DNA of 60,072 nucleotides from a virus, in the UHGV virus genome UHGV-0303171; one strand, 5' to 3'. The notes below the pieces were generated by a model. It was not told where the DNA came from. It searched no databases and was given only the letters and a program-made list of their open reading frames with translations. A program made the position numbers and the translations under genes. Every line of letters begins with the position of its first letter. The stretch's first letter is position 1. Of this stretch, positions 3,798-59,565 are shown in pieces.

Positions 3798-3811
3798 AGA
3801 GCGAGGAAGAA

Positions 3812-43711: not shown

Positions 43712-44283
43712 CAGAGCAAGAAGCATTAGCTGTAGCACTGGCAGAACAGGAGCTTGTAAAGCCAGTCAATGACATTTTTATGATTGACCCTGAGACAAGG
43801 ACGATTAATGTACCGGACTCAGAAAGACTTTTCGGTGTGCAGTCAGATGAAAAGGCTGAAAGAAAGTATTTCAAGTGTCCGAAAATCGTTGGAAACAACA
43901 TCAATCTTGCGACCATGAATCTGTACATCAACTACAAAAGTCCGAATCAAGCAGATGAAGAGGGAGACTCCTACATTGTACAAGATGTTGTGACAAGCGG
44001 AGACTACATCACATTCTCTTGGATTCTTGGTCGAAATGTAACAAAATATACAGACGGAATTCACTTCTCTTTCTGCGCCAAAAAGTCAAACTCAGACGGC
44101 ACTCTTACGACAGAGTGGAACACAACATGGGCTGAGGGAGAAGTCCTTGAGGGATTGGAAACTACTCAGCAGATCGCGGAAAAGAACAAGGATTTAATTG
44201 AGCAGCTATTGAACACCTACGATTCCAAAGTTGCTGTGAAGTTGGAATTCGACCCGGCAACCCGTGGCATATCTATTATTTAA
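43708..44283 (+). CDS. hypothetical tail-module protein (C-terminus ATRGISII)
   Basis: GTG start after a GGAGGTG RBS, 191 aa. Confidence 0.5.
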   Translation: MTEQEALAVALAEQELVKPVNDIFMIDPETRTINVPDSERLFGVQSDEKAERKYFKCPKIVGNNINLATMNLYINYKSPNQADEEGDSYIVQDVVTSGDYITFSWILGRNVTKYTDGIHFSFCAKKSNSDGTLTTEWNTTWAEGEVLEGLETTQQIAEKNKDLIEQLLNTYDSKVAVKLEFDPATRGISII

Positions 44284-44295
44284 GGATGGAGAATT

Positions 44296-44463
44296 ATGGC
44301 ATTGAAAGCAGAAGATGTATTGGCGATTGTCAATGGAAAAATAAAGAATCCTGTCACTCAAGAACAAGTGACAACAGCTGTTAATGAGTATCTAAAAGAA
44401 AATCCAGTTACCGCAGGAACAGCAACATACAACACAGAGACAAGAGGAATCACGATTGAGTAA
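44296..44463 (+). CDS. hypothetical small protein (C-terminus ETRGITIE)
   Basis: 55-aa ORF after a GGAGAA RBS. It shares the C-terminal TRGI[ST]I motif with the previous ORF. Confidence 0.35.
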   Translation: MALKAEDVLAIVNGKIKNPVTQEQVTTAVNEYLKENPVTAGTATYNTETRGITIE

Positions 44464-44474
44464 GGAGGTACGAC

Positions 44475-44735
44475 ATGGCAACGAGTGATATTGGAAAAGC
44501 TGCATTTTTAAATGTAAAGAACAAAGACACGGGTGAAATCGAAAAGAAAACGCTAATCCCTCCAGCTCCGTCTGATGGGGATTTAGGAGGAATTTCAGAA
44601 GAAGAGCTGGTGCAGATCACAAAAAACAAAGAAAAAATCAGTTCACTAAATGAAGAAAAGGCGAATGGCAAAGGAATCTCATTCTCAATCAACGAATCAG
44701 GTGGACTTAGAGTAACTTATGATGATGGCAAATAG
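44475..44735 (+). CDS. hypothetical protein
   Basis: 86-aa ORF with an AAGGAGG RBS. Confidence 0.45.
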   Translation: MATSDIGKAAFLNVKNKDTGEIEKKTLIPPAPSDGDLGGISEEELVQITKNKEKISSLNEEKANGKGISFSINESGGLRVTYDDGK

Positions 44736-44747
44736 GAGGGCATAAGC

Positions 44748-46262
44748 ATGGCACAGGCATCTGTAGATATTGCTATGGAAAGTACATCTCAGGAGATTCT
44801 TGAGATGTGCAAAATTATCCGCACGATGGTGACGGATGTAGAAAAATTCGACTGGAAAAACTTCTGGGCGAATATGGCAACAGGAGAGCTGTTCTCCACA
44901 AAATTCTATAATTACGAAAGCTCAACGAATCCAGCCGGAGAAAAACTGAACGCTTCAAAAGGACTGGTTGCAGTTCCTTCCACAGACAAGGTTAAGAATC
45001 AGGATGATTTCGCTGGAAGAAATGCTTTCAATTACATTGACTGTAATTTCACCGTGACTGATTCGGGCGACAAGATTCCAGTTGCAATCAAAGGCGGTAA
45101 TGGATTTTTCAATACAGGAAAGGTCGATGTAGGAATCATGACTCCACCTACTTATTGGGGCAAGGAAGAATTTGACGGATATTACATCATTCATTTTTCT
45201 GATACGCCGCATCCGGAAGTTGGCTGCACCATTCCAACTCCGTGGACAGATGAGAATCTTGGATATGGCATGGTCACAAAGTATTATGCCGGATTGATTG
45301 ACGGAATCGCATACAGTTCTTCCGGGAACGCGATTTACAATTTTGTTTCTGCGCAGTTAGCAATCGATGAGCTGAAAAAGAAAGGCGCTGGATATGTCGG
45401 TTCAGGTTCGGAGCGTACTGCATATCTGCTCTGTATGCTGTGGATTAAGTATGCAACAAAGAATAGTCAGAAATATTTCAAAGGTTGTACCGAGACTGGT
45501 GGACATCAGTACAAAGTTGCTGAAGCTGGCGAGAACGTAAATTACGTGGCGATTACAACAGCTCAGGCGAAGAACTTCTATGTAGGAGAAACTGTATCAA
45601 TCGGTACTCCGGGAGCTAATAACAATGTTGACCGTGGACAGGCAAGCATGAATGCAATTGCAAAGAATGTGAGAATTACAGCGATCGAATCTATTGCGGG
45701 TACAGCAAACAGCAAGGTCTACGTTGAAAAGACTGGCATGACAATCACTGCGGATACTTACATTTCATCAATGCCACTTCACTCAGGTACAACAGATGAA
45801 GTGCTTGGAGCTGACGGATACATTTCCAATGACGGCAAGCACGCATTCAAGCTTGGTGGTATCGAGGAGGGTGTTGGAGCTAACTTCATCTCCATGAATG
45901 AGTTATGGAATAAAACCACAGCCAGTATGGTTGACTATTATGTGCGTCCAAAAGGCGTGGATTGGTCTGCGACAGCTTCAGGATGGAAGAAAGTTGTTAC
46001 AGTGGATTTGATTGACTCCAATGACTGTTGGATTGGAGATATCGACATTGACCTTGAGACTGGCGTTGATTATCTAAAAACGATTGGAACTGGTGATTCT
46101 GTTGGTGTCGGAGACAGACTCTATAAAGGCGGTACCGGCACTGGTTACAGAATGGCTTTGAAGCGTGGGAGTCTCAGGCTTGGCGGGCATGGCGGTTTCT
46201 GCTACTCGTATCTCTGGAACGTGGTCTCTGGGGCGTATTGGTACTGCGCCTTCTGCGTTTAG
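44748..46262 (+). CDS. DGR target protein: tail-fibre or receptor-binding-like protein with the variable repeat in its last 33 codons
   Basis: 504 aa, last gene of the tail module. The 3' 98 bp (VR) are 84 of 98 identical to the downstream TR, and all 14 differences fall at TR adenines. Confidence 0.7.
   Translation: MAQASVDIAMESTSQEILEMCKIIRTMVTDVEKFDWKNFWANMATGELFSTKFYNYESSTNPAGEKLNASKGLVAVPSTDKVKNQDDFAGRNAFNYIDCNFTVTDSGDKIPVAIKGGNGFFNTGKVDVGIMTPPTYWGKEEFDGYYIIHFSDTPHPEVGCTIPTPWTDENLGYGMVTKYYAGLIDGIAYSSSGNAIYNFVSAQLAIDELKKKGAGYVGSGSERTAYLLCMLWIKYATKNSQKYFKGCTETGGHQYKVAEAGENVNYVAITTAQAKNFYVGETVSIGTPGANNNVDRGQASMNAIAKNVRITAIESIAGTANSKVYVEKTGMTITADTYISSMPLHSGTTDEVLGADGYISNDGKHAFKLGGIEEGVGANFISMNELWNKTTASMVDYYVRPKGVDWSATASGWKKVVTVDLIDSNDCWIGDIDIDLETGVDYLKTIGTGDSVGVGDRLYKGGTGTGYRMALKRGSLRLGGHGGFCYSYLWNVVSGAYWYCAFCV
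46163..46260 (+). repeat. DGR variable repeat (VR)
   Basis: Ungapped match to TR at an offset of 196 bp. The mismatches are only A-to-N. Confidence 0.8.
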
Positions 46263-46358
46263 TTCCTACCACCTTTCAGGGGTGAATTTTTTCGCAGAAA
46301 AAAGAGGGGCTCTTCCCCTTAATTAAGTTGAAGAGAAAATACAGGACTTGTCGTGCTG

Positions 46359-46456
46359 GCGTGGGAATCTCAGGAATGGCGGGAATGGCGGTTTCTGCTA
46401 CTCGAATCTCAGGAACGAGGTCTCTAGGACGAATTGGAACTACGCCTTCTGAATTT
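46359..46456 (+). repeat. DGR template repeat (TR)
   Basis: Non-coding copy between the target gene and the RT. It carries adenines at every position that differs in VR. Confidence 0.8.
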
Positions 46457-46639
46457 TATTATGCAAACATTACGCACCGCTGGGTGCTTGCACGGCATTT
46501 CGCAACAATAAGTTGTACCGAAAGGTCTTAAATAAGTAACAAGAAAGGGAGCTGGTGCCACGGCAGTGGTACTGGCAGTTTATACGAATTGGTATAGGCT
46601 GGGGCTAGTAGAAAAAACCGAAAGTCCCTCGGAACTAAA

Positions 46640-47845
46640 ATGAAACGATATTGCAAGAACATTGATATAACAAGCAGAGAATTAATCTCAGAAGCAACAT
46701 GGAGCTGTATAAGTAATAAAATTACACATAGCGACACAATTCACATGTTCATGGAATACACAGGACTTCCGTATCAGTTCTTGATGGATGTAGCTCAAGA
46801 GAGCAGATATATGCTTGACAGCATTGTAGAAACTGTCATAGATGGAATCCGACAAGAAATACTGGAACAGAAGTATATCGTGAAGAAAATCCGTTACAGA
46901 ATCAAGAAAGATTCTTGTACCGGAAAACTACGAAATATCGGAATCCAAGATATTAAACAGCAAATTTACGATTATATCGCAGTATACGGCTTGAAAGAAT
47001 TGTTTGAGAAGAAACTTGAGTTTTATCAATGCGGAGCAGTTAAGCGTAAAGGTAATGAATTTGGAGCTGGAGCTATCAAGAAATGGCTGGCAGATAAAAA
47101 TATCCGTTGGGCATGGCAATCTGATGTTCGACATTATTATGAAAACATAAACAAAAATGTTCTGAAAAAGATGTTGAAACGTGATGTGAAGAATGACAAG
47201 CTTCTTCATTTAGTGTTCTTCTTGATTGATACGTTCGAGTATGGACTTTCTATAGGTTCATATTTGAGCCAGTTCTTAGCAAATTACTATCTGAGCAAGG
47301 CTTATATCTATGCAAGTCAACAGTTTAAGGTTCGCAAGAGGAAAGATGAAACAGCCAAGAAAGTAAGGCTTGTGAGTCATGTATTATTCCAGATGGATGA
47401 TATCATTTTCTTCGGTCGCAGCAAGAAAGACATGCAAATGCTAGTAAAGAGATTTAACGGATATATCGATAAAGAGCTAGGACTTGAATTGAAAGAAACA
47501 GCTCATTTCATTGATTTGCAGACAGGATATGTAGATATTCTTGGACGGAAGATATCAAGAAAGAATCTGACGATACGTTCATCAACATTCTTGAAAGCAA
47601 GGAGAACTTATAAGAGGGCATATTCGTATGTCTGCCACGGGAAAGAGATTCCGCTGAAACTTGCAAGAAGTTGTGTCGCAAGATACGGAGCAATCAAACA
47701 CACGGATAGCAAGAGATTTCAAAGACGATACCACATTGAAACTATAAATAAGGCAACTAAGAAAGTAATCGGACGAGCCGCGAAAGGAGAACAACGTGAA
47801 TACAATGAGATTTTCGGAGAAACAGGAGAAAGTAAACATCTATGA
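46640..47845 (+). CDS. DGR-type reverse transcriptase
   Basis: RT motifs 1-7 are recognisable. Motif 4 is GLSIGSYLSQFLANYYL, which carries the DGR hallmark IGxxxSQ. The catalytic box is FQMDDIIFFG. There are no maturase or endonuclease domains. Confidence 0.9.
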   Translation: MKRYCKNIDITSRELISEATWSCISNKITHSDTIHMFMEYTGLPYQFLMDVAQESRYMLDSIVETVIDGIRQEILEQKYIVKKIRYRIKKDSCTGKLRNIGIQDIKQQIYDYIAVYGLKELFEKKLEFYQCGAVKRKGNEFGAGAIKKWLADKNIRWAWQSDVRHYYENINKNVLKKMLKRDVKNDKLLHLVFFLIDTFEYGLSIGSYLSQFLANYYLSKAYIYASQQFKVRKRKDETAKKVRLVSHVLFQMDDIIFFGRSKKDMQMLVKRFNGYIDKELGLELKETAHFIDLQTGYVDILGRKISRKNLTIRSSTFLKARRTYKRAYSYVCHGKEIPLKLARSCVARYGAIKHTDSKRFQRRYHIETINKATKKVIGRAAKGEQREYNEIFGETGESKHL

Positions 47846-48125
47846 GCTTGAAAACGGAGCGAGAGATGCTGTTATTCTAACAAATGAAAGAGTAGTTACA
47901 GAGACAGAACCGCTGGAAGATGACAAAGAAAAAGAGACTACAGCATATGAGTATGATGGAAACATCTTCCGTACTCACTCGCTGACAGCTGAACAGATCA
48001 AAGCTGATCCTGAGAGTTATCTAGACTACGAAGGAGATGATGCTCCTACAGACGCAATGGTTGAGTATGCAAACCTTAAAATTGACGAGTACACAGCGCA
48101 GCTGATGGAAGAAGGACTTATTTAA
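47796..48125 (+). CDS. acidic hypothetical protein
   Basis: GTG 47796 or ATG 47805 after an AAGGAGA RBS. It overlaps the RT 3' end by about 50 nt. Confidence 0.45.
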   Translation: MNTMRFSEKQEKVNIYELENGARDAVILTNERVVTETEPLEDDKEKETTAYEYDGNIFRTHSLTAEQIKADPESYLDYEGDDAPTDAMVEYANLKIDEYTAQLMEEGLI

Positions 48126-48143
48126 GAAAGGTGGTAGTAAACA

Positions 48144-48317
48144 ATGAGAATTTTAGTAGAGAGTCTGAAAAGACTGTACGAGAATGACAGAGTTACAAAG
48201 ACACAGCTTCAGAAGAGAGTAGAAAAAGGCGTCATCTCAATTGATGAATATAACTACATTGTCGGAGAGGATGCAGAAAAAACAGAAAATGAAAAAGCGG
48301 AACCGTCCGAAGAATAG
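48144..48317 (+). CDS. XkdX-family small protein
   Basis: LKRLYENDRVTKTQLQKRVEKGVISIDEYNYIVGED matches the XkdX pattern (rwyd.g.wtk.qv...V.kGkIT.eeYkeItGe). A GGTGG RBS is present. Confidence 0.6.
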   Translation: MRILVESLKRLYENDRVTKTQLQKRVEKGVISIDEYNYIVGEDAEKTENEKAEPSEE

Positions 48318-48331
48318 AGAGGGCAAAACCA

Positions 48332-48448
48332 TTGAAATACTTTTTTTATCAGACTTATGTCACGGCATTGCCAATCGTCTTGACAGCATTCATGGGTTAT
48401 GTTGTGTGGCTTTTAAAAAAATCAGAAGAAAGACAGGGATGCAAATAG
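48332..48448 (+). CDS. putative small single-TM protein (holin/antiholin-like), TTG start
   Basis: LKYFFYQTYVTALPIVLTAFMGYVVWLLKKSEERQGCK. A GAGAGGG RBS lies 10 nt upstream. The call is highly tentative. Confidence 0.25.
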   Translation: MKYFFYQTYVTALPIVLTAFMGYVVWLLKKSEERQGCK

Positions 48449-48649
48449 CAAAGGCACGATGCTTTTACTTAGAGTCCAGTTGATTGAATACCATGCCAAG
48501 TACATGAGGCTTGGATACATTCCATTCTATGCTTATCAGAATTTTTGTGAGATGTATGAAGCATATCATGAACTAGGCGGAAATGGAATGGTAACAAAAA
48601 TGAAACAGGAAATTGATGAGCTACATCTGAAACAGAAGGGAGAATAATC

Positions 48650-48826
48650 ATGACAGAACAGACAATTAAAGAAGTCATTAAGAGTTTCGCTTACGGATTA
48701 TCCGCAAAGGAAATCTCAGACAATGAAGGAACATCACTGGAAACTATGGAAAAATTTGCAGAGGAACACGCTGCGGAGATCGAGCAGAAGAAAGCAGAAC
48801 TGAAAGAAGGTGGATGGTATGAGTAA
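48650..48826 (+). CDS. hypothetical small protein
   Basis: 58-aa ORF after a GGGAGAATAA RBS. Its end overlaps the endolysin start. Confidence 0.4.
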   Translation: MTEQTIKEVIKSFAYGLSAKEISDNEGTSLETMEKFAEEHAAEIEQKKAELKEGGWYE

Positions 48827-49889
48827 ACTTATTATTGATGTATCTTACCACAACGGAGTCATTAACTGGGAAAAGGTAAAGGCATCTGGTTGTGCCGGAG
48901 CTATCCTTAGATGTGGTTACGGAGACAATATCGCATCACAGGATGATAAGCAGTGGGTGAGAAACCTTGCTGAATGTGAAAGACTTGGTATTCCGGTAGG
49001 AGTCTATCTGTACAGCTATGCTACTTGTGACAGACAGGCACAGAGTGAACTTGACCATATCTTACGATTGATTAAAGGTCATACATTCCAGTTACCGATT
49101 TTCATTGATGTAGAAGAACCAGGAACACAGCACTATGCTCCTAGATGTTGCGAGATCGTTTGCGAAGGACTTAAATCGAATGGGTATACTCCGGGAATCT
49201 ACGCTTCACTGAGTTGGTTTAGCAACCATCTTGGAAGTGTACGTGGCAAGTATATTGAATGGATGGCAAGATACAAAAATCTTCCGGAAGATACATACAA
49301 TGGTCAGTATGCTATTTGGCAGTATGCTTCTGACGGACAGGTAGATGGAGTCAGTGGAAGAGTAGATGTCAACCATTGTTATATGGAATTTGGTGGAAGT
49401 GTTCAGCCTGTTACACCGGCAACACCGTCTAAACCAGCAGAGAAGAAAGACTTAGGACAGGTCGATATCACATATCAGGCTTATACAACTAAGTGGTGGC
49501 CGGCAGTAACGAACAAAGCGGACTGGGCTGGCAAAGGAGATGATGTTCCAATCAAGTGGCTTGCCATAAAGGTAAGCAAGGGAAGCATCCGCTGTCGAGT
49601 ATACACAAGAAAGAATGGTTGGCTTCCGTACCTTACATTCGGCAACAGCTACAATCTGAATGACAAGGTCAATGGGATCCTCGGAGATGGTTCAGAGATT
49701 CTTGCTATCGAGCTGTACTATATCACACCGGATGGATATAAGTACAAGATGGTCCACTACAGAGTTTCTGTACAGAACAACAAGAACTTCTACGCAGATC
49801 AGGTCGATACACTGAAAGCAAGTGGCATGGACGGATTCGCCGGAGACAAATACAGATTCATTGACAAGTTTCAGGCTTGGATTGAGTAA
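48819..49889 (+). CDS. endolysin, GH25 muramidase domain plus C-terminal domain of about 170 aa
   Basis: The N-terminus IDVSYHNGVINWEKVKASGCAGAILRCGYG is the GH25 N-terminal signature. The catalytic residues lie in DVEEPG. An AAGGTGG RBS is present. Confidence 0.85.
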   Translation: MSKLIIDVSYHNGVINWEKVKASGCAGAILRCGYGDNIASQDDKQWVRNLAECERLGIPVGVYLYSYATCDRQAQSELDHILRLIKGHTFQLPIFIDVEEPGTQHYAPRCCEIVCEGLKSNGYTPGIYASLSWFSNHLGSVRGKYIEWMARYKNLPEDTYNGQYAIWQYASDGQVDGVSGRVDVNHCYMEFGGSVQPVTPATPSKPAEKKDLGQVDITYQAYTTKWWPAVTNKADWAGKGDDVPIKWLAIKVSKGSIRCRVYTRKNGWLPYLTFGNSYNLNDKVNGILGDGSEILAIELYYITPDGYKYKMVHYRVSVQNNKNFYADQVDTLKASGMDGFAGDKYRFIDKFQAWIE

Positions 49890-49907: not shown

Positions 49908-49944
49908 AAACAAAAATCCCGGGTGAAATTCCCGGGTTCTTTTT
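49908..49944. terminator. bidirectional intrinsic terminator
   Basis: The palindromic stem CCCGGG-tgaaatt-CCCGGG is flanked by an A-run on the 5' side and a T-run on the 3' side. It lies between the convergent endolysin and XRE genes. Confidence 0.65.
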
Positions 49945-50560
49945 ATTTCTTTTTATCGTTATTCTTTCTTGTTTGACCAGTCATTGTGTAACCGTTTTTG
50001 TTTTCACATGCAGCTTCACGACCTCTTTGCAAAGCGATATTTAAAGAAGCAAGGTCAGGCATTATATTATCTTCATTGACAAGTTCTCCTCTTGCTTTTT
50101 CCATAAGGAAGTTGTCGTAAACAGCTTGACAGATATTAACTCTCGACCGCATAGAGCAGTGATTGTTGGCTGTCAGCATATTTAATTGCTCGTGCCATGA
50201 GGAACCAGTGTCCCCGAACATACAGTAAGCCATTTGGCGAATATCACGCTCGGTGTAGCTTGTGTTTATGTAAGCATGAATACAGTCAACCATCTTTTCA
50301 ATTTCTGTATTGTCAACAGTCAAGAATTTATCAGGGTATCGGTAGCTGAGAATGTACTTTTCCATGTTTAATCCTAGCACCGAGAACCACTTTTCTAATG
50401 TTCTGTAACCAGGCTCACCTATTCCGGATTCCCAGTTCTGAATTGTAGTGACTGACTTTCCGAGAGCTTGAGCCATTTGTTTTCTTGTTTTTCCGGCATC
50501 TGTTCTTGATTTAGCAAGCATGTTACCGAAATTCTGTGCTCTTTCAATCTCAGATGACAT
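49943..50560 (-). CDS. XRE-family HTH transcriptional regulator with C-terminal domain (repressor-like)
   Basis: RKQMAQALGKSVTTIQNWESG is the HTH. The start is placed at the minus-strand ATG whose upstream GGGAGGT RBS lies at plus-strand 50569-50575. The track ORF extends further. Confidence 0.6.
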   Translation of the reverse strand: MSSEIERAQNFGNMLAKSRTDAGKTRKQMAQALGKSVTTIQNWESGIGEPGYRTLEKWFSVLGLNMEKYILSYRYPDKFLTVDNTEIEKMVDCIHAYINTSYTERDIRQMAYCMFGDTGSSWHEQLNMLTANNHCSMRSRVNICQAVYDNFLMEKARGELVNEDNIMPDLASLNIALQRGREAACENKNGYTMTGQTRKNNDKKK

Positions 50561-50761
50561 AAAAAATTTTACCTCCCTTTTGCCATTTCGCAACCAAAAA
50601 ATTGTGTTTCAAATTTTAAAAAATAAAGACATAATATTTTACGTCTATTTTTCACGGATGCAAACAAAAAAATTAATGCATAATTATAAAAAATTTAATA
50701 AGTAATTTTTCCTCCGTTTCCGCTATAATAAAAACAAATTTTAAAAAAGGAGGACAAACAC

Positions 50762-50965
50762 ATGAAAGAATTTTTAAACACTATTGCATACTTATTATCG
50801 GTGAGACCGATTATTGGTGAAACTGAGTACATGAGACAGTTGTCTTCCTACATTGGAACGATTGTCCCAGAGTCAAAGTCAGACCAATTTGATCGATTTC
50901 CTCTTGCATCTTACACCAGTGCTGACAATCTTGCAAGTGATATTTTCAAATTTATTAATGATTAA
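50762..50965 (+). CDS. hypothetical protein
   Basis: 67-aa ORF after an AAAGGAGGA RBS. Confidence 0.45.
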   Translation: MKEFLNTIAYLLSVRPIIGETEYMRQLSSYIGTIVPESKSDQFDRFPLASYTSADNLASDIFKFIND

Positions 50966-51171
50966 TTCTTAACAAGTACTATTAAATTCTCTTATAGCAG
51001 TTTTAGGAGGGGGGGTTCTATGAAGTATAAAGACGTAAAAGAATATTATAGAATAACAATTATCGAATACACGAATGAAATAGAAAATGAAAGTAATTTG
51101 AAAACGTTGTTCCATTTTGCCAAAGTATGTTTTGAAGAGGAAAAAAGAAAGGAGACGTAAGTCTCCCTTCC

Positions 51172-51558
51172 TCAATTTTTTGAAATAAACGTTTTATAGA
51201 AGTTACAAAAAAGTTTTTTCTTGTCATCATCCATATAATAGTAGTCCATTACCATATTCACAAAATCTTTATCAGTCTGAACAATTTTCTGAACAATTTT
51301 CAGGAATTCGTCTAACGATTCATCTTCTATATATGGATGATCGTCTGTTAGCTGAGTTTTCAAAACTCTAAAATAATCAGCAATCTCTTGAATTTTACCA
51401 GCTTTAGGAAGAATCTTCCCTTTACACCATGTATTAAATGTTGTATAAGAAAATCCCAACTCTTCGGCTACTTCTTTTTGTTGTTTTCCGCTCTTGGCAA
51501 TGTAGTAATTCAAGTTCTTAGCAAATATCTTCTTTTGCTCTTCATCGGTATATGACAT
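51172..51558 (-). CDS. CI-like XRE-family repressor
   Basis: QKEVAEELGFSYTTFNTWCKG is the HTH. The RBS is GGAGGTGTGAG. The gene is divergent from the Cro-like gene. Confidence 0.65.
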   Translation of the reverse strand: MSYTDEEQKKIFAKNLNYYIAKSGKQQKEVAEELGFSYTTFNTWCKGKILPKAGKIQEIADYFRVLKTQLTDDHPYIEDESLDEFLKIVQKIVQTDKDFVNMVMDYYYMDDDKKKLFCNFYKTFISKN

Positions 51559-51597
51559 TCTCACACCTCCTCTCTTGCATTGAATATAGTAACACAC

Positions 51598-51680
51598 AAT
51601 CCTAAAAAATTCAATACAAATCCTAAAAATATCAATTTACGTATTGACAATCCAAAAAAATAGGATTATAGTATAATCAC
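51598..51680. promoter_or_regulatory. divergent promoter/operator region with ATCCTAAAA repeats
   Basis: AATCCTAAAAA occurs at 51598 and 51619. The palindrome ATCCAAAAAAATAGGAT at 51651-51667 overlaps TTGACA at 51644-51649. A fourth palindrome ATCCTAAAATTTAGGAT lies at 51920-51936. Confidence 0.5.
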
Positions 51681-51707
51681 AGAAACAAACGAAAGGAGGG
51701 AAACGAA

Positions 51708-51926
51708 ATGTTTGATACTTACAAAGTACCTAGAATTTCTATCGCAGCTTGTAGAGTTAACGCAAGAATGAAACAGAGAGAATTCGCTGAAAAACTTGGG
51801 GTTTCAATATCTACAGTAACTAACTGGGAACTTGGAAAAACAGAACCAGATTTAAGCCAGCTTAGAACTATCAGTGAAATTTCTGGAATTCCTATGGATT
51901 TTATTTTTGTGCAAAGAGTATCCTAA
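51708..51926 (+). CDS. Cro-like XRE-family HTH protein
   Basis: QREFAEKLGVSISTVTNWELGKTEP is the HTH. An AAAGGAGGGAAACG RBS is present. Confidence 0.65.
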   Translation: MFDTYKVPRISIAACRVNARMKQREFAEKLGVSISTVTNWELGKTEPDLSQLRTISEISGIPMDFIFVQRVS

Positions 51927-51960
51927 AATTTAGGATTTAAAAACAGAGAAAGGAGAAAAA

Positions 51961-52140
51961 ATGGTTAAGACAAAGGGTTATTCAAATGAAGAAGATGTGA
52001 AGACGCTGAGAGATTGCGTAGAATTTTATGCACTTTCCATTTGCGAAGACATGGAAAAAGGAGAGGGAATTGAAAGAACATTACAGAGATGCAAAATTCT
52101 CAATTCCCTTGTTGGAGCATTAGCGACTATCGGTAGTTAG
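51961..52140 (+). CDS. hypothetical small protein
   Basis: 59-aa ORF after an AAAGGAGAAAAA RBS. Confidence 0.4.
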   Translation: MVKTKGYSNEEDVKTLRDCVEFYALSICEDMEKGEGIERTLQRCKILNSLVGALATIGS

Positions 52141-52309
52141 AAAGATTGAATGGGTTCTTAGCTACATCGACAGAGTTTTCTCCGGTAGGAAGTTCTTTGA
52201 TGATTTCAGAGTAGTATTGGTCGTACATTTCCTTGAACTCATCGAAAGAACCAGTAAAGCCGCAACACTTAGCAGTTGCATAGGAAGAAGCAAGTTGATT
52301 ATTATCCAT
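52127..52309 (-). CDS. hypothetical small protein
   Basis: 60 aa. A strong minus-strand AAGGAGGTG RBS is present. Confidence 0.45.
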   Translation of the reverse strand: MDNNQLASSYATAKCCGFTGSFDEFKEMYDQYYSEIIKELPTGENSVDVAKNPFNLSNYR

Positions 52310-52382
52310 TTCAAATTCACCTCCTTATATCAATTTAAGGAGATTATAACACAGAAAAATATATTTAGAAAGGCGATACAAG

Positions 52383-53090
52383 ATGAACGAAATTAAATTA
52401 TTTACAAATAAAGAATTTGGTGAAATCAGAACAATGAATATTGATGAAGAACCGTGGTTCGTTGGAAAAGATGTGGCAGAAGCACTTGGATATTCCAACG
52501 CAAGTAAAGCTGTTTCTACTCATGTTGGAGAAGAAGATAGGATTTTAAAAGTACTTGAAGCAGATTCCCAAAATGGGAATGTGGTAAAAACGCAGACAGC
52601 ACTTATCAATGAATCCGGCTTATACGCATTAATCTTTGGGAGTAAGTTGGAATCCGCTAAGAGATTCAAGCACTGGGTTACATCAGAAGTGCTTCCGGCA
52701 ATCAGAAAGACTGGTTCTTATCAGAAACCAATGAGTCCAGTAGAAATGATGCGTATTCAGTTAGGTATGATTGACGACCATGAGGGACGTATTACAGAAC
52801 TCGAACAGAATATGACGATTGATTACGGACAGCAGATGTCACTTGGAGATATCGTCAACAGGGTTGTGGTTGATTCTCTTGGCGGTAAAGATAGTAACGC
52901 ATATCACGAAATTGGCAGAAAAGTATTTTCCGAGTGTAACAGGGATTTGAAGCATTACTTTAATGTGAATGCTCGCAACAACGTTCCGAAGAAGAAATTC
53001 GATGAAGCTGTTGATTACGTGAAGAACTGGCAACCATGCACTAACACAAGGATTATGATTCAGGAATGCAATGCACAGTTGAGTATGTAG
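52383..53090 (+). CDS. antirepressor (Bro-N domain protein)
   Basis: FGEIRTMNIDEEPWFVGKDVAEALGY...INESGLYALIFGSKLESAKRFKHWVTSEVLPAIRKTGSY matches the Bro-N consensus. Confidence 0.8.
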   Translation: MNEIKLFTNKEFGEIRTMNIDEEPWFVGKDVAEALGYSNASKAVSTHVGEEDRILKVLEADSQNGNVVKTQTALINESGLYALIFGSKLESAKRFKHWVTSEVLPAIRKTGSYQKPMSPVEMMRIQLGMIDDHEGRITELEQNMTIDYGQQMSLGDIVNRVVVDSLGGKDSNAYHEIGRKVFSECNRDLKHYFNVNARNNVPKKKFDEAVDYVKNWQPCTNTRIMIQECNAQLSM

Positions 53091-53103
53091 GAGGTGCAAC
53101 ACA

Positions 53104-53346
53104 ATGATAAACAAACTTAATCATGAGAAAGTAAACGGAGATTCCGAAGAACTGCACGCACTGAAAGGGTTCAAGGTCTTATCTGTTGGTAACGGAACAA
53201 TCGGAGAAGAGTGTGCGTTGAGAATCATGCTGATGAACGAGAACAACGTTGCTGTTGATTTAAGCATCACGGAAGGCGGAGCGTACCTCAGCGATTTCTG
53301 CGCACTGACAGAGGACATGATTCCTCGTAACTATGAGGATAAATAA
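53104..53346 (+). CDS. hypothetical protein
   Basis: 80-aa ORF after a GGAGGTG RBS. Confidence 0.45.
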   Translation: MINKLNHEKVNGDSEELHALKGFKVLSVGNGTIGEECALRIMLMNENNVAVDLSITEGGAYLSDFCALTEDMIPRNYEDK

Positions 53347-53523
53347 ATGTTAGATGTAATTGATATCAAAAGGAAGAGGCTTGAAGTAATTGATATCCGA
53401 AGAGAACTCCAGGTGATGGAAGAAGATGAATCTTACGATGACCTGACACCATTTCTTGTAGGAGTGATATCGGTAGCTTTACCACTTCTTATGACAGCGG
53501 TATGGGTGATATGCGGATATTAA
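53347..53523 (+). CDS. hypothetical small membrane protein
   Basis: 58 aa with a C-terminal TM helix. Confidence 0.35.
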   Translation: MLDVIDIKRKRLEVIDIRRELQVMEEDESYDDLTPFLVGVISVALPLLMTAVWVICGY

Positions 53524-53600
53524 AAAGAGTGCCATAACAAAGGCGGCAACCTTCTGGCACTCGGCTATAAAACCAACTTAATAATAGCATAGGAGGAGAA

Positions 53601-53762
53601 ATGAAACAACCAAAGAAACTTTCATTGTGGCAAAAGAAGTGTTTAGCAGCACATTATCTGAACGCAAAAGACTGGATGCTTCTTGAGGAAACAGAATTCT
53701 ACTTGAAGATTATCAATAAGTACACGAACAAGACGAAGAGCATTGATAAATTTAGGAGGTGA
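53601..53762 (+). CDS. hypothetical small protein
   Basis: 53-aa ORF after an AGGAGGAGAA RBS. Confidence 0.35.
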   Translation: MKQPKKLSLWQKKCLAAHYLNAKDWMLLEETEFYLKIINKYTNKTKSIDKFRR

Positions 53763-53765
53763 ACC

Positions 53766-53942
53766 ATGAAAACAAGAGGACTTACCGAAGAAGAATCAGA
53801 GATTGTGTCTGCTGCTGGATTAAAACCGGGAGAATGGGAGTGTGCATTAGAAGATTTTGCATACTTACATATAATAAGGAAGAATTGCAAAAACAGAGCA
53901 ATTATCGACAAAGAGAAAGGAGCGCTTATCCGATTTGTATAA
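53766..53942 (+). CDS. hypothetical small protein
   Basis: 58-aa ORF after a GGAGGTGAACC RBS. Confidence 0.4.
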   Translation: MKTRGLTEEESEIVSAAGLKPGEWECALEDFAYLHIIRKNCKNRAIIDKEKGALIRFV

Positions 53943-54086
53943 ATGTGATGATAACTTTGAACCAGAAGAACCTGATGTAGAATGCACTTGTTGTGGATGC
54001 AAAATCGATGACGGAGATTACATGTACTGCATATCAGGAGAAATACTATGTGAGGATTGTTTAAACGATCAGTATAGGAGGATTGT

Positions 54087-54284
54087 ATGAACGAGATTAT
54101 AAAAGTAACTATTCCAATGGAAACGCTCATGGGATTGCTGAGAAAGGAAGCGGAACTCAGGGTATTGAAAGGACATATCAGTGCTGAAATCGAATCAGAA
54201 TCAAGTGATTATATTGATAAAAAGAAAATCGCAAGTATTTGTTCTATTTCATTCAATAAGGAAAACGAGGGAGGGGGATTCTGA
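54087..54284 (+). CDS. hypothetical protein
   Basis: 65-aa ORF after an AGGAGGATTG RBS. Confidence 0.4.
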   Translation: MNEIIKVTIPMETLMGLLRKEAELRVLKGHISAEIESESSDYIDKKKIASICSISFNKENEGGGF

Positions 54285-55096
54285 TGGCTGGATTATCAAT
54301 TCCACAAAGCGAATATAGAGCGCATCCAGCAATCAGTAAATCGGACTTGTTCAAGATTACAAAGTCTCCACTTCATTTTAAATGGTCAATGGAGAACAAG
54401 GAAGACAAAACAGCAGCACTCATTTTCGGAAGTGCGTGCCACAAGTATATTCTTGAGCGTGATGATTTTGATAGTGAATTTGCTGTTGCTCTGAACGTAG
54501 ACAGACGAACAAAAGATGGTAAAGAAGAATATGCTAAGTGGCTAGAAGAAAATGAGGGAAAAGATGTAGTTTCTTCTGATGATATGGAGAAAATCAAAGC
54601 CATGGCACAAGTGATCGATTCCAACAGGTTTGCAAAGAGACTTCTTTCCGGTGAACATGAAAAGTCATTCTTTTGGACTGATGAACAAACGGAAGAAGAA
54701 TGCAAGTGTAGACCGGATGATATTACCATTATTGGAAATCAGCACATCCTTGTTGATTATAAGACTACGGACAACGCAGAGACAGAAGCTTTCAGAGCGT
54801 CTGCAATCAAATATGGATATGATCTGCAAGCCGGTATGTACTGTGAGGGTTACAAGGCGAACACCGGGGAAGATGCGATATTCATTTTCGTGGCACAGGA
54901 AAAGAAACCGCCGTATGCAATCAACATTCTTCAAGCCGATGAATACATGATGATTGAGGGAAAGAACTTGTTTCACGATTTGATGGAAATATACCATAAC
55001 TGCAAGGTTACTGACAACTGGTATGGATACATGGGCGAAACCGGGGACGTACAGAGTCTTGGATTGCCAAAATGGTTACAGAAAGAATTTGAATAG
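54284..55096 (+). CDS. PD-(D/E)XK-family exonuclease (YqaJ/lambda-Exo-like partner of RecT)
   Basis: 270 aa immediately upstream of recT. An acidic and Lys catalytic-core pattern (ILVDYKTT) is present. Confidence 0.55.
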   Translation: MAGLSIPQSEYRAHPAISKSDLFKITKSPLHFKWSMENKEDKTAALIFGSACHKYILERDDFDSEFAVALNVDRRTKDGKEEYAKWLEENEGKDVVSSDDMEKIKAMAQVIDSNRFAKRLLSGEHEKSFFWTDEQTEEECKCRPDDITIIGNQHILVDYKTTDNAETEAFRASAIKYGYDLQAGMYCEGYKANTGEDAIFIFVAQEKKPPYAINILQADEYMMIEGKNLFHDLMEIYHNCKVTDNWYGYMGETGDVQSLGLPKWLQKEFE

Positions 55097-55110
55097 GAGG
55101 ACAAACAACT

Positions 55111-55965
55111 ATGTCAAACAATGAAGTAAAAGAGTATCAGGTAGGAGCACCTACAATGCAAATTCCTGATACATCAAAAATAAATCAGGGAACCGTTGCT
55201 ATTGAGTCAAGCAGAGCCATGGTAGAAGCACAGGGAAAGCTTCTGTTGGCGAAACAGTTTCCTAGAAACTACACACAATCATATACGAAAGCGATTGAAG
55301 CGTGTCAACGGAAAGGATTTGCAGAAAGTGCATTCTATTCTTATCCAAGAGGAAAAGAGACTGTGACAGGAGTTACGATCAGATTTGCTGAGGAGCTTGC
55401 TCGCTGCTACGGAAACATGGATTATGGTATTAAAGAGCTTTCACACGAAGATGGACGTTCGGAAATGCAGGCTTACGCTTGGGATTTGGAAACGAACACT
55501 ATTTCCAGTCAGAACTTTACTGTTGAGCATATCAGAGAGACACGGTACGGGAATAACAAGCTAACATCTCAGCGTGACATCTATGAGAAGACTGCAAACG
55601 ATGGAGCAAGAAGACTCAGAAGCCGTATCCTTGCGATTTTGCCACCGGACCTTATCGAAAACTGTATCAATGAGTGCAAGAAGACTCTCAGGGGAGAAGA
55701 GAGCTTACCACTGTCTGACAGAGTAAGAACACTGGTTGCGTACTTCTCTAAGAAAGGCGTGACACAGGAAATGATTGAGAAACGTCTGAACCACAAAGTT
55801 GAGACCATGACTTCTGACGAACTTGTTGAATATACCGGAATCTATAACGGTCTGATTCACAAAGAAACAACCATCTCAGATTGGTTCGAGCAACCGAAGA
55901 CAGCGAGTCAGATTTCAGAGCTGATGAAAGAGGAAGAAGAAAACGAGAAAAAGGGTGATAAGTAA
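55111..55965 (+). CDS. recT: RecT-family single-strand annealing protein
   Basis: The RecT-like core is FAEELARCYGNMDYG...AYAWDLETNT...RSRILAILPPDLIE. Confidence 0.8.
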   Translation: MSNNEVKEYQVGAPTMQIPDTSKINQGTVAIESSRAMVEAQGKLLLAKQFPRNYTQSYTKAIEACQRKGFAESAFYSYPRGKETVTGVTIRFAEELARCYGNMDYGIKELSHEDGRSEMQAYAWDLETNTISSQNFTVEHIRETRYGNNKLTSQRDIYEKTANDGARRLRSRILAILPPDLIENCINECKKTLRGEESLPLSDRVRTLVAYFSKKGVTQEMIEKRLNHKVETMTSDELVEYTGIYNGLIHKETTISDWFEQPKTASQISELMKEEEENEKKGDK

Positions 55966-55966
55966 A

Positions 55967-56359
55967 ATGGAATATCATGTGACTGTTAAAGGGTTTAAAA
56001 GCGGATTGAATGAGCTTTTAGGTGGAAGAATGTATGACCACCGGACCAAGAAGTATCGTAATCCGGAAAAGAGTAGAAATGATGCAATCTGCGCTAAGTA
56101 CATCAAACTGAGCAAGGATTTACGTGGCGTAAAGATTGAAAGACCTGTAATTATTCATTATTCGTTTTATTGTGAAAACAAGATGCACGACAGGATGAAT
56201 GTTGCTTCTGCTTTTATTAAGTCTTTTGAAGATGCGATGCAAAAATGTAGAATTATCAGAAATGATGGTTGGGACGATGTACTCACTCCGACATTATCAT
56301 TTGATATTGACAAGCAGAAACCGAGAGTAGAAGTGACAATTGAAGAGGTAGAAGAATGA
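55967..56359 (+). CDS. RusA-like Holliday junction resolvase (putative)
   Basis: HDRMNVASAFIKSFEDAMQKCRIIRNDGWDDV fits the RusA D.DN..K...DAL....DD..V pattern. Confidence 0.5.
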   Translation: MEYHVTVKGFKSGLNELLGGRMYDHRTKKYRNPEKSRNDAICAKYIKLSKDLRGVKIERPVIIHYSFYCENKMHDRMNVASAFIKSFEDAMQKCRIIRNDGWDDVLTPTLSFDIDKQKPRVEVTIEEVEE

Positions 56360-56793
56360 ATAATGTAAGTTTAGTTGGCAGACTTGTTCGTGATCCAGAA
56401 GTGAGATATGGACAAAATGAAAGTGTTTCAGTAGCAAAGTTTTCACTGGCAGTTGAAAGAAAATGGAAGAGAGACGGTGAGCCTACAGTTGATTTTATAA
56501 ATTGTACAGTGTTTGGGAAATCAGCAGAATTCACAGAGAAATATTTCCGAAAAGGAATGAGAGTTGCGATTACTGGAAGAATTCAGACTGGCAGTTACAA
56601 GAACAAAGATGGACAGACTGTTTTTACGACAGAGATTATCGTAGAGTCACAGGAAATCGCTCAGAGTAAATCAGAGAGTAATGAAAGTTCCACCGCTAGC
56701 AATGCAGAAGCTGGAAAATCACCATACGGTTCTAGCGGAGACGATTTTATGTCTATTCCTGAAGGTACTGAAGATGAACTCCCGTTCTCATAA
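56356..56793 (+). CDS. ssb: single-stranded DNA-binding protein
   Basis: The OB-fold N-terminus is MNNVSLVGRLVRDPEVRYGQNESVSVAKFSLAV. The acidic C-terminal tail is DDFMSIPEGTEDELPF. Confidence 0.95.
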   Translation: MNNVSLVGRLVRDPEVRYGQNESVSVAKFSLAVERKWKRDGEPTVDFINCTVFGKSAEFTEKYFRKGMRVAITGRIQTGSYKNKDGQTVFTTEIIVESQEIAQSKSESNESSTASNAEAGKSPYGSSGDDFMSIPEGTEDELPFS

Positions 56794-56872
56794 GCCGAAA
56801 AAGTGTTGTCATCCAGATTGCTTTAATTGTCCGTATTCCGATTGTATATGGGACGAACTTACGTCAAGCGAT

Positions 56873-57202
56873 ATGTCAGAGACTAATAATCGAGACTATC
56901 AATTTTACGAAGAGTCAACAGGTGAAAAGTATCATAAAGGTACGGACAATGAATACAGAGCAGAAAGAGAAAAGCTGTACAGGAAAGAGCATCCGGTCAA
57001 AAGAGATCGTTCTGAATACAATAAACAATATTATCTGAAGAATAAGGAAAGGATTAAAAAGAATCGTTCCAGTTCTTATGACACTGATTGCAATACGAAA
57101 AAATGTAAAAAGTGGAGAAAATCTCACATGGAACACAAGAAAGAATATGACAGAAAGAGATATTTACAAAGAAAGGCAGAATTAAAGCCAGGGGGAACTT
57201 GA
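56873..57202 (+). CDS. basic K/R-rich hypothetical protein
   Basis: The start is placed at the first ATG after the ssb stop. The track ORF overlaps ssb. Confidence 0.4.
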   Translation: MSETNNRDYQFYEESTGEKYHKGTDNEYRAEREKLYRKEHPVKRDRSEYNKQYYLKNKERIKKNRSSSYDTDCNTKKCKKWRKSHMEHKKEYDRKRYLQRKAELKPGGT

Positions 57203-57218
57203 TTTGGGAGAGAGAAGA

Positions 57219-57935
57219 ATGTTTACGAAAAGAATCACAGAATCAGATGAATTTTTGGGAATGCCTAGTAGCTCTCAGATGCTGTACTTCCATCTTTCGA
57301 TGAATGCTGACGATGATGGATTTGTCAGCAATCCACGGAAGATTCAGAGAATGTGTGGTGCTTCAAATGATGATTATGACTTGTTAATTATGAAGAGATT
57401 CATTCTGACGTTTGAAAGTGGTGTTATCGTAATCAAGCATTGGAGAATGCATAACTACATTCAATCTGACCGATATAAGCCAACCGACTGCATCGATGAA
57501 AAGAAGATGCTTGGGTTGAAAAAGAACAAGGCTTACACTCTGGATGCATCTCAGATGGATAAGAGATGCATCCAGGCAACTGACAAGATTACATCTGATA
57601 GAGAAATCGCACAAATTGAGGAACCAAGCAGTCAGATTGAGTCAATCAAAGAAATCATATCGTACTTGAATATGAGAACCGGAGCAAGATACAGATATCA
57701 AACTCAAAGCACTCAAAAGCATATTAGAGCAAGGCTGAATGAACATTTTACTGTTGATGATTTCAAGGCAGTGATTGACAAGAAATACGCTGAGTGGAAC
57801 GGGACAAACATGAGCAAGTTTTTGAGACCAGAGACATTGTTCGGGACTAAATTTGAGAGTTACTTAAATCAGAGTGCATCTACTGCAAATTCTGCCAATG
57901 GAAAGATTTCTGAATGGAGTGAGTTACGGACATGA
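57219..57935 (+). CDS. phage replisome organizer / DnaD-like replication protein
   Basis: The C-terminus ARLNEHFTVDDFKAVIDKKYAEWNGTNMSKFLRPETLFGTKFESYLNQ matches the conserved phage replication-protein C-terminal domain (Phg_2220_C-type). Confidence 0.7.
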   Translation: MFTKRITESDEFLGMPSSSQMLYFHLSMNADDDGFVSNPRKIQRMCGASNDDYDLLIMKRFILTFESGVIVIKHWRMHNYIQSDRYKPTDCIDEKKMLGLKKNKAYTLDASQMDKRCIQATDKITSDREIAQIEEPSSQIESIKEIISYLNMRTGARYRYQTQSTQKHIRARLNEHFTVDDFKAVIDKKYAEWNGTNMSKFLRPETLFGTKFESYLNQSASTANSANGKISEWSELRT

Positions 57936-58462
57936 CAAAAAATGAAACAATTCAAATCATAATGATGATTCAAGCCACGTATCCTCAATGGGATGTGCAA
58001 GACAAGCAATACACCGTCAATATGTGGCAGAAGATATTCGAAGAAGAAGAATATAGCGTTGTTGAACAAGCTTTAATGGCTTACATCAGATCAGACACAA
58101 AAGGTTTTGCACCAGTCCCAGGACAATTAATAGAGAAGATTCAGTTCATTACTCAACCAAAACAGATGAACGAAGTAGAAGCGTGGTCGCTTGTCAGCAA
58201 AGCACTCAAAAGATGCGGGTATTATGCTGATGAAGAATTTGAGAAACTTCCGAAGCTTGTTCAGAAAGCAGTTGGCAGCCCTAGTCAATTAAGAACATGG
58301 GCAATTGACAAAAATTACAATGAACAGGTGACCAGCTCAAACTTCATGCGATCTTACCGAGAAGAAGTGAGAAACGAAACACTGTTCGGTAAGATGAGTT
58401 TAGTTATCAGAAATGCAATTACAGATAACAGAAATGTTGGAATGATTGAAGAGAAAGGATAG
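57932..58462 (+). CDS. G39P-like helicase loader (putative)
   Basis: IQIIMMIQATYPQWDVQDKQYTVNMWQKIF...APVPGQLIEKI resembles the loader/inhibitor of G40P N-terminal domain. Confidence 0.5.
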   Translation: MTKNETIQIIMMIQATYPQWDVQDKQYTVNMWQKIFEEEEYSVVEQALMAYIRSDTKGFAPVPGQLIEKIQFITQPKQMNEVEAWSLVSKALKRCGYYADEEFEKLPKLVQKAVGSPSQLRTWAIDKNYNEQVTSSNFMRSYREEVRNETLFGKMSLVIRNAITDNRNVGMIEEKG

Positions 58463-58467
58463 AGAAT

Positions 58468-59121: not shown

Positions 59122-59123
59122 CC

Positions 59124-59342
59124 ATGAACACAGGAGAAAAGATAGATTACATGATTCAGTGTTTGAAAGTCGCAAAAGCTGAGTGGGATTACATGGCTGA
59201 TTACATTGCAAATGAACCGACTGAAAGATCAGAGCTGTGGGAGTTCCTTGATACACACAGAAGTCCGAACAAGGCGTTGATTAAGGACAACTTGAAAAAC
59301 GTGGCGAGAATGGGATTCCAGCTTGCGAATGAGGTGAAGTGA
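59124..59342 (+). CDS. hypothetical protein
   Basis: 72-aa ORF. Confidence 0.45.
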   Translation: MNTGEKIDYMIQCLKVAKAEWDYMADYIANEPTERSELWEFLDTHRSPNKALIKDNLKNVARMGFQLANEVK

Positions 59343-59500
59343 TGATGACGGTAAGAGAAGAACAGGTACTTTGCAAACTGCATGAATTTATCGATGCAAA
59401 CGATATTAATTGTGCAGAAGATGTGACGCAGCGAGATAGCATAAGTGAACAGTGCGTAGATCTTGTGGCAGAGTTGGTTGATACGCTTTGCTATAAATAA
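59342..59500 (+). CDS. hypothetical small protein
   Basis: 52 aa with overlapping ATGA start. Confidence 0.3.
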   Translation: MMTVREEQVLCKLHEFIDANDINCAEDVTQRDSISEQCVDLVAELVDTLCYK

Positions 59501-59565
59501 CATTAAATTACAGAAAGGAGACGGAGCTCCGGCCGGGCAAAGATATATCGGCTCCTTTCGAGAAG

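Follow-up and report, generated by a model that had tools for sequence, protein, structure and literature searches.

A probably active diversity-generating retroelement without detectable avd in the tail-fibre module of a gut phage

Diversity-generating retroelements (DGRs) are systems in which a reverse transcriptase (RT) copies a short template, making errors only at adenines, and in which the copy overwrites the tip of a receptor-binding protein gene. The template repeat (TR) itself is neither mutated nor consumed in this process. Avd occurs in approximately 74% of DGRs, about one third have a GC-rich inverted repeat 3′ of the variable repeat (VR), a feature that is not obligatory, and RTs of the DGR clade are recognized by the sequence [I/L/V]GxxxSQ in RT motif 4 and by a catalytic xxDD. 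Here we report on a stretch of 60,072 nucleotides, UHGV virus genome UHGV-0303171 (hereafter the window, at its full length), in which a region located between tail-fibre genes and an XkdX-type gene is very probably a complete DGR of the minimal layout target gene-TR-RT, without an accessory gene, in the tail-fibre module of a temperate phage of gut Bacillota.

Among the closest described systems, Avd is essential for cDNA synthesis in the DGR of Bordetella phage BPP-1 (Wu et al. 2018, PMC5758913). In the same system, cDNA synthesis halts just before the “cPRT Stop”, a duplex between the avd 3′ end and the spacer that is needed for priming; of 278 Avd-containing DGRs, 207 were predicted to form it (Handa et al., bioRxiv 10.1101/2023.10.23.563531). 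Avd is nevertheless not a defining component of DGRs, as Architecture A, which has no accessory genes, accounts for 29% of 372 curated elements (Wu et al. 2018, NAR 46:11, PMC5758913), and Avd-independent homing was proposed for Architecture A elements in the same study. The RNA elements of Avd-less DGRs were analyzed neither by Wu et al. 2018 (PMC5758913) nor by Handa et al., whose analysis covers Avd-containing DGRs only. In known DGRs, fixed differences between VR and TR at the 3′ end mark the boundary of the transfer (Wu et al. 2018, PMC5758913).

The system type is thus well known, and the cassette of the window is an ordinary but clean instance of it. Since DGRs of gut phages have already been catalogued by the tens of thousands, the cassette itself comes as no surprise. 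We obtained no megablast match for positions 44000-49000 among GenBank phages, and found no individual description of this lineage in the DGR literature that we compared. Our analyses indicate that the cassette is Avd-less and probably active, the activity being a property attributed to the lineage.

Repeat pair, adenine specificity and transfer boundary

The VR lies at the end of a 504-aa open reading frame (ORF), the TR is intergenic and contains an in-frame stop, and the RT ORF is located 183 nt downstream of the TR. The core of the element consists of the following features:

44748..46262, plus strand: target gene, encoding a 504-aa variable protein of the tail-fibre module; the VR corresponds to its last ~33 codons
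46163..46260, plus strand: VR, with A-templated variable sites at 46170-46246; all 21 vary among 8 close phages
46247..46262, plus strand: IMH-like 3′ end of the VR (IMH, initiation of mutagenic homing), with the core CGCCTTCTG at 46247-46255 as in the TR, CG at 46256-46257 versus AA in the TR, then TTT and the TAG stop
46359..46456, plus strand: TR, with 23 A; the VR frame reads RGNLRNGGNGGFCYSNLRNEVSRTNWNYAF and then an in-frame TGA at 46450-46452; near-invariant in relatives
46640..47845, plus strand: RT assigned to the DGR type, 401 aa, pI 9.7, with IGSYLSQ at residues 205-211 (47252-47272) and the catalytic QMDD at residues 251-254

A direct-repeat search of the window returned a single 98-nt repeat at this locus (spacing of 196 nt, 86% identity). 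Both this search and an independent recount align VR 46163-46260 with TR 46359-46456 without gaps at an offset of 196, with 84 of 98 positions identical, in agreement with a preliminary description of the locus made from the sequence. Every one of the 14 mismatches corresponds to an A in the TR, opposite which the VR carries T six times, G five times and C three times; the earlier statement that no C, G or T position differs is therefore accurate, and the example strings quoted in its support are all correct. The TR contains 23 A in 98 nt, which amounts to 23.5% rather than the ~27% initially given, and the probability that 14 of 14 mismatches would fall on A by chance is 1.5e-9 under a binomial model (a value far below 1e-6 had been predicted) and 2.5e-11 under a hypergeometric one. 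Similarity between VR and TR drops sharply right outside the 98 nt on both flanks. The TR pattern in which every A is replaced by N occurs at two places in the window, which are the VR and the TR, with 0 expected by chance, and this search revealed no further VR copies in the window.

In the mutagenesis zone proper, all 12 mismatches are at A, with 21 A among 93 positions (p = 7e-10), and 12 of these 21 usable adenines are changed in the VR of the window. Nine TR adenines are still A in the VR (TR 46366, 46372, 46385, 46400, 46406, 46414, 46415, 46433 and 46439). The proposal that diversification capacity is not exhausted since adenines remain in the TR misstates the mechanism: at the nine unchanged sites, it is the VR that now carries a templated A. 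Read in another frame, VR and TR also yield two mechanical ORFs on the plus strand, 46165-46326 (53 aa) and 46328-46531 (67 aa), whose near-identical peptides are artefacts of the repeat, and which are not genes.

An RT scan of IMG/VR provided 29 loci with RT identities of 33-96%, and self-comparison of these loci revealed an identical arrangement in 26 of them: the target ORF terminates in a VR, the TR follows after a gap of ~90-130 nt, and 170-270 nt of spacer separate the TR from the RT. Together with the window, these 26 loci make up 27 TR/VR pairs, in which 378 of the 560 template adenines of the mutagenesis zones are changed in the VR (67.5%; 185 to G, 141 to T and 52 to C), and in which non-A changes inside the zones number six. 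Seven loci have an RT 93-96% identical to that of the window; their spacers are near-identical and their TRs differ at few positions, and the VRs of the window and of these seven loci vary at all 21 adenine sites of the zone. Furthermore, the non-A substitutions of each relative's TR reappear in its own VR. A near-constant TR, VRs that vary at all A sites and mirrored non-A substitutions together point to repeated and recent transfer from TR to VR. This is the direction that had originally been put forward, and it is borne out by the fact that the A-bearing copy is non-coding, conserved and adjacent to the RT, and that the variable copy is the coding one. A separate ~175-nt diverged direct repeat flanks the DGR region in L010-L014, which belong to the lineage with 55% RT identity (locus positions 1636-1813 versus 5949-6126, 63-68% identity); its mismatches have no A bias.

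As a correction to the preliminary description, 12 of the 14 mismatches can be credited to adenine diversification, and the last two behave as fixed differences of the IMH/IMH* type past the transfer boundary. A 9-nt GC-rich core, CGCCTTCTG (TR 46443-46451), is common to TR and VR and separates the last variable adenine (TR 46442) from the CG/AA difference. At VR 46256-46257, CG is found opposite AA of the TR (46452-46453) in 8 of 8 close loci, and the C-terminus of the target reads ...AFCV in 33 of 34 proteins, the sole exception resulting from a collapse of VR and TR. In sister lineages the VR ends in ..TGCGTTT, and the TR carries CT (L010-14), CA (L009) or AT (L015 and L030) at the corresponding positions; more distant groups have other fixed and partly non-A differences. 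Taken over the lineages other than that of the window, the fixed changes are T>G, A>G, AT>CG or AT>TC, compared with AA>CG in the window. Because sister TRs carry T or C there, VR bases 46256-46257 are not TR-derived. On the strength of these alignments, we consider that mismatches 13 and 14 are not products of mutagenesis and that they fall on A by coincidence in the window. By analogy with known elements, the fixed 3′ differences would correspond to the IMH/IMH* pair that distinguishes recipient from donor.

The TR has an in-frame TGA (46450-46452) where the VR has the Cys codon TGC (46254-46256), such that the template “encodes” a protein shorter by 2 residues; being situated past the transfer boundary, this TGA never reaches the VR. 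Three contigs contain a single chimeric repeat that is VR-like in its 5′ part and TR-like in its 3′ part and is followed by the spacer (L031, 3890-4200; L007, ~3700-4003; L022, ~3700-4003). In these contigs the VR-TR interval (196 bp, or ~183 bp) is gone and the target ORF ends at the TGA of the TR (P0128, 502 aa, ...YAF). We considered P0128 as proof of transfer of the TR stop and rejected it, as its contig is a VR/TR fusion without the 196 bp. Such a collapse could reflect either true recombination or the collapsing of a repeat by the assembler.

Reverse transcriptase, target protein and RNA elements

The RT ORF of the window is intact and has all the residues that are invariant in its family; IGSYLSQ and QMDD are both invariant in an alignment of 36 RT sequences of this family. 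It matches phrog_1423, a reverse transcriptase family of PHROG (5.8e-53), and among PDB entries its sequence is closest to 8ub7, the RT from the Bordetella phage DGR ribonucleoprotein (E value of 3.8e-4). With the family profile, 8ub7 again ranks first (4.3e-16), before LtrA, a group II intron protein (4.9e-10). Similarly, 8ub7 is the top Foldseek match of the AlphaFold model (pLDDT 88), with an E value of 3.6e-17 and a target-normalised TM of 0.85. Judged by motifs, sequence profile and predicted fold, the RT belongs to the DGR type.

Pfam and NCBIfam scans returned no family for the target protein, and its family profile matched nothing in the PDB by sequence, such that only fold comparison identified it. 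The best fold match of its predicted model is the Thermus DGR variable protein TaqVP (PDB 5vf4), which has a C-type-lectin fold. The VR is thereby placed in a C-terminus that is modeled as a C-type-lectin fold, and by analogy the protein is presumably receptor-binding. The adenines of the mutagenesis zone are distributed over seven AAY (AAT/AAC), three AGG, two TAC, one GAG and one ACG codons; the preliminary description had anticipated mostly AAC/AAY-derived codons, and AAY is indeed the most frequent type. All 21 adenines of the zone occupy codon position 1 or 2, and an A-to-N change never yields a stop. The resulting repertoire is 4^21 = 4.4e12 DNA sequences, or ~1.2e12 protein sequences.

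Variation in the target family follows the same pattern. Across 34 target proteins of at least 88% identity, mean column entropy is 0.04-0.34 bits in the body of the protein and reaches 0.60 and 0.95 bits in the last two 24-residue bins (last 48 residues). The cluster at 90% identity that includes the target protein of the window has 466 distinct sequences, and the target-protein clusters P0004, P0070 and P0051 obtained at this threshold have 466, 2056 and 377 distinct members, respectively; sizes of this order would be expected from VR hypervariation in metagenome assemblies. At TR A46411 (VR 46215), AGG is changed to TGG, and the resulting Trp490 is found in 8 of 8 close IMG/VR loci and in most of the 34 proteins. 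A fixed Trp at 46215 was ruled out, Gly and Arg being also present in the wider protein set, which indicates that Trp is strongly favoured there as a preference and not by fixation.

Around the VR and TR we delineated the following RNA and DNA elements:

46349..46356, plus strand: 5′ strand of the bracketing helix, UGUCGUGC, ending 2 nt before the TR and overlapping the conserved AGGACTTG (46343-46350)
46490..46497, plus strand: 3′ strand of the bracketing helix, GCACGGCA, ~35 nt past the TR and overlapping the conserved GGCAUUUCG (46494-46502)
46474..46487, plus strand: small GCACC-GCUG-GGUGC hairpin, placed after the TR and before the 3′ strand of the helix, found in 4 of 6 lineages with differing stem sequences
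46551..46632, plus strand: structured part of the TR-RT spacer, comprising P1 (46551-46576), P2 (46577-46600), P3 and a possible pseudoknot
46601-46605 with 46624-46628, plus strand: P3, GGGGC/GUCCC, with a conserved CUAGUAG loop
46618-46621 with 46629-46632, plus strand: candidate stem of the possible pseudoknot, CCGA/UCGG
46270..46292, plus strand: terminator-like hairpin H1, CACCTT TCA GGGGTG (46270-46284), followed by a T-run; present in every lineage, with the motif AGGGGTGAATT conserved across lineages
46302..46320, plus strand: GC-rich inverted repeat H2, AAGAGGGG CTCTT CCCCTT, 3′ of the VR; GGGG/CCCC core in every lineage, no T-run on the plus strand

The 8-bp helix that brackets the TR is paired in 98.3% of cells (17 sequences from 6 lineages) versus 14-52% when slid by 1-3 columns, and compensatory changes are observed in 7 of its 8 pairs (for example GUCGUGC/GCACGGC, GUCACAC/GUGUGGC, CGCAGC/GCUGCG and CAUGGU/ACCAUG). 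The 5′ edge of the VR/TR homology lies 2 nt from this helix, which fits a role similar to that of the cPRT Stop, and by analogy the helix may act like its BPP-1 counterpart. In the spacer, 95% of cells are paired versus 34-47% in slid controls (RNAalifold and pair counts), compensatory changes affect five pairs of P1 and three pairs of P2, and the single-sequence fold of the TR-plus-spacer RNA has a z of −3.6. An Rfam scan of 45900-47000 with E up to 10 returned chance snoRNA matches only and no family.

Downstream of the target stop, the motif YAGGGGTGAATT (46277-46288, 15-26 nt past the stop) is conserved across lineages with 48-96% RT identity. This conservation goes beyond the needs of a simple hairpin, and the motif could be a terminator or an element for recognition of the target site. 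More generally, H1 and H2 could by analogy be terminator-like or homing-promoting hairpins; in other DGRs, the homing-promoting hairpin or cruciform lies where H2 sits (Wu et al. 2018, PMC5758913). The only sigma-70-like site in the vicinity, at 46434-46462, was considered as a promoter for the TR RNA and discarded: it is inside the TR, and the number of such sites is below the chance expectation.

These elements are compatible with a mechanism, modeled on BPP-1 for its RNA intermediate, cis-priming and termination, in which an RNA spanning ~46343-46640 would be transcribed and the TR would be looped out by the 8-bp helix, whose strands lie just 5′ and ~35 nt 3′ of the TR. The downstream spacer would fold into at least three conserved hairpins, presumably holding the RT, which would initiate cDNA synthesis in cis close to the TR 3′ end, either at the GC-rich core 46443-46451 or just past it. 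The enzyme would make a faithful copy of the TR apart from the adenines, opposite which any base could be inserted, and synthesis would halt at the bracketing helix, which matches the sharp 5′ end of the homology at 46359/46163. The ~100-nt cDNA would then replace the VR up to the IMH-like boundary at 46247-46257. As an outcome, up to 21 nucleotide positions, in 16 codons, would be re-randomised in the tip of the predicted C-type-lectin fold, presumably to retarget host receptors.

Accessory factors and rival explanations

No Avd-type family was present among the Pfam matches listed for 84 ORFs of the window with E up to 1e-3 (for the 52-ORF set, 25 of the 34 matched families were listed, the remaining 9 being single-member families), and Avd was not found among the small basic ORFs re-scanned with E up to 1. 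The 96-nt gap between VR and TR and the 183-nt spacer between TR and RT leave no space for a gene. The ORF that follows the RT is:

47796..48125, plus strand: acidic 109-aa ORF, pI 4.1, no family match, overlapping the RT stop by 50 nt

Lineages with RT identities as low as 37% have this ORF after the RT, always before the XkdX gene (48144-48317), and it is probably a gene of the tail module.

Several observations weigh against the interpretation of the region as a complete and probably active DGR. The Pfam model RVT_1 matches the RT with 23.1 bits, below its cut-off of 29.6. The IMH-like core is short, with 9 nt compared to the 14-nt GC stretch of BPP-1, and H2 is located ~40 nt past the VR rather than 4 nt and exhibits little covariation. 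We detected no promoter for the TR RNA, and a search by analogy with BPP-1 gave no convincing template:primer duplex or priming nucleotide; immediately before 46490, the sequence either folds into a local hairpin or pairs weakly with the GC core of the TR, inconsistently across lineages. The scans of the window's ORFs described above gave no Avd homologue, though Avd is essential in the sole DGR dissected biochemically. Lastly, the evidence for activity pertains to the lineage rather than to this individual copy.

How far these observations favour another explanation depends on the one considered. An ordinary diverged tandem duplication or gene-conversion tract, or a template direction reversed from the coding to the non-coding copy, would account for a direct repeat 196 bp apart whose copies evidently recombine, or are recombined by assemblers, yet we give these possibilities practically no credit. 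They are refuted by the concentration of all 14 mismatches at the adenines of one copy (p ~1e-9 to 1e-11), by the same A bias in 27 independent pairs, and by the conservation of the A-rich copy beside the RT versus the variability of the coding copy; moreover, substitutions to G, T and C alike exclude deamination. It is also very improbable that all 14 mismatches, including 46256-46257, result from adenine mutagenesis with CG kept by selection for removal of the TGA and gain of Cys-Val. Both TR bases are A in this lineage, an unchanged templated TGA would cost 2 residues, and TGC is a possible A-to-N outcome of TGA. However, CG is invariant in the close loci and in all but one of the proteins although TGG or TGT, and ATT, CTT or TTT, would also keep the frame open, sister VRs have the same end opposite T or C of the TR at one or both positions, and the lone ...YAF protein stems from a contig with a VR/TR fusion. 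A relic, active in an ancestor and now inert, in which the VR differences are frozen history, appears unlikely to us, if less so than the preceding two: a single genome is a snapshot, the search for a TR RNA promoter was negative, and the three related contigs devoid of the VR-TR interval suggest that the locus can decay, or can be mis-assembled. Conversely, the RT ORF retains all invariant residues of the family, the TR, bracketing helix and spacer hairpins are intact, and completely different VRs are found in phages with RTs 93-96% identical and near-identical spacers, which implies that VR turnover is much faster than background divergence.

The explanation that we take most seriously besides an element complete in itself is that an accessory factor is needed after all, which either the host or an unrecognised phage gene, such as the 109-aa ORF, would provide in trans; we nevertheless deem it rather unlikely. 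In its favour are the requirement for Avd in BPP-1 cDNA synthesis, the presence of the 109-aa ORF after the RT in every lineage with RT identity of at least 37%, and the small acidic “CH1” accessory proteins of some Avd-less DGRs (Wu et al. 2018, PMC5758913). Against it, neither the matches listed for the 84 ORFs nor those of the small basic ORFs include an Avd-type family, the 109-aa ORF always travels with XkdX and thus looks like a tail-module gene, tblastn did not detect it in lineages with 33-35% RT identity, and no remote avd was reported in genomes that contain Avd-less DGRs (Wu et al. 2018, PMC5758913). We tentatively raise the possibility, without holding it to be probable, of a two-component DGR in which the 401-aa RT and an RNA of ~300 nt, comprising the TR, the stop helix, P1-P3 and the possible pseudoknot, suffice for adenine-mutagenic cDNA without any accessory protein. 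If this were true, the RNA architecture, which keeps the stop helix and has either replaced the Avd-binding stem-loop or can dispense with it, would reveal how Avd came to be bypassed, and would be a more compact chassis than the present bRT-Avd systems for engineered targeted hypermutation.

Phage context, significance and comparison with known systems

The window encodes an integrase, a Tn916-type excisionase, Cro/C1 repressors, a terminase, an SPP1-type portal and a major capsid protein, as well as a 1407-aa ORF of tape-measure size, XkdX, a holin and a GH25 lysin. From this gene content, the window is best read as a temperate siphovirus-like phage. Its ORFs at 55-25021 and 49943-59650 also encode a protein with a Thoeris anti-defence Tad2-like domain, FtsK/SpoIIIE, Bro-N and Rha, and a fragment of an N6/N4 DNA methylase (55-357) is cut by the start of the window. 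Relatives of the cassette come from IMG/VR and from gut metagenome assemblies. A scan of genome contigs yielded one distant relative, on a 104-kb contig of a Lachnospiraceae metagenome-assembled genome (MAG), which has an RT of 45% identity and the same TR/VR system, in which 13 of the 14 mismatches correspond to a TR adenine. The host is probably one of the gut Bacillota, of the Lachnospiraceae, an assignment that is tentative because this MAG is the single host clue.

For annotation, the 504-aa ORF becomes a hypervariable and probably receptor-binding tail protein, and ORF 46640-47845 becomes a DGR RT that Pfam alone would miss. Beyond annotation, the locus adds an Avd-less lineage that retains a covarying TR-bracketing helix resembling the cPRT Stop, an element surveyed so far only in Avd-containing DGRs. 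Comparison within the family also makes it possible to tell adenine mutagenesis apart from fixed IMH/IMH* differences located on A by chance, which are a trap for automated DGR callers that count A mismatches. Because current engineered mutagenesis systems use bRT plus Avd, Avd-less pairs of RT and RNA are candidate compact mutagenesis tools.

The cassette resembles that of BPP-1 (mtd-avd-TR-brt) by a non-coding TR from which the VR differs through A-to-N changes, by the location of this VR at the 3′ end of a gene for a tail receptor-binding protein of C-type-lectin fold, the receptor binding being presumed here, by an RT assigned to the same clade for which 8ub7 is the best match in both sequence and structure, by fixed 3′ VR/TR differences (IMH/IMH*) and a GC-rich inverted repeat 3′ of the VR, which could here be a terminator instead of a homing element, and by a helix across the TR flanks (compare the avd:Sp “cPRT Stop”) together with a structured TR-RT spacer. 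It differs from BPP-1 in that the window lacks a detectable avd and that the upstream strand of the helix is intergenic instead of inside avd, in the length of the RT (401 aa versus 328 aa for bRT, with ~18% sequence identity), and in the dimensions of the DNA and RNA elements, with a GC core of 9 versus 14 nt, a hairpin ~40 versus 4 nt past the VR and a helix of 8 versus 11 bp. The target protein shares 16% sequence identity with TaqVP (PDB 5vf4), which is cellular, and has additional N-terminal domains. In its organization, with target, TR and RT on one strand and without avd, HRDC, MSL or CH1, the cassette corresponds to the Architecture A1 DGRs (Wu et al. 2018, PMC5758913). Finally, as an element encoded by a gut phage that probably infects Firmicutes, with a tail protein as target and a C-terminal VR, it is similar to the virus-encoded gut DGR clades (Roux et al. 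2021, Nat Commun 12:3076, PMC8144416).

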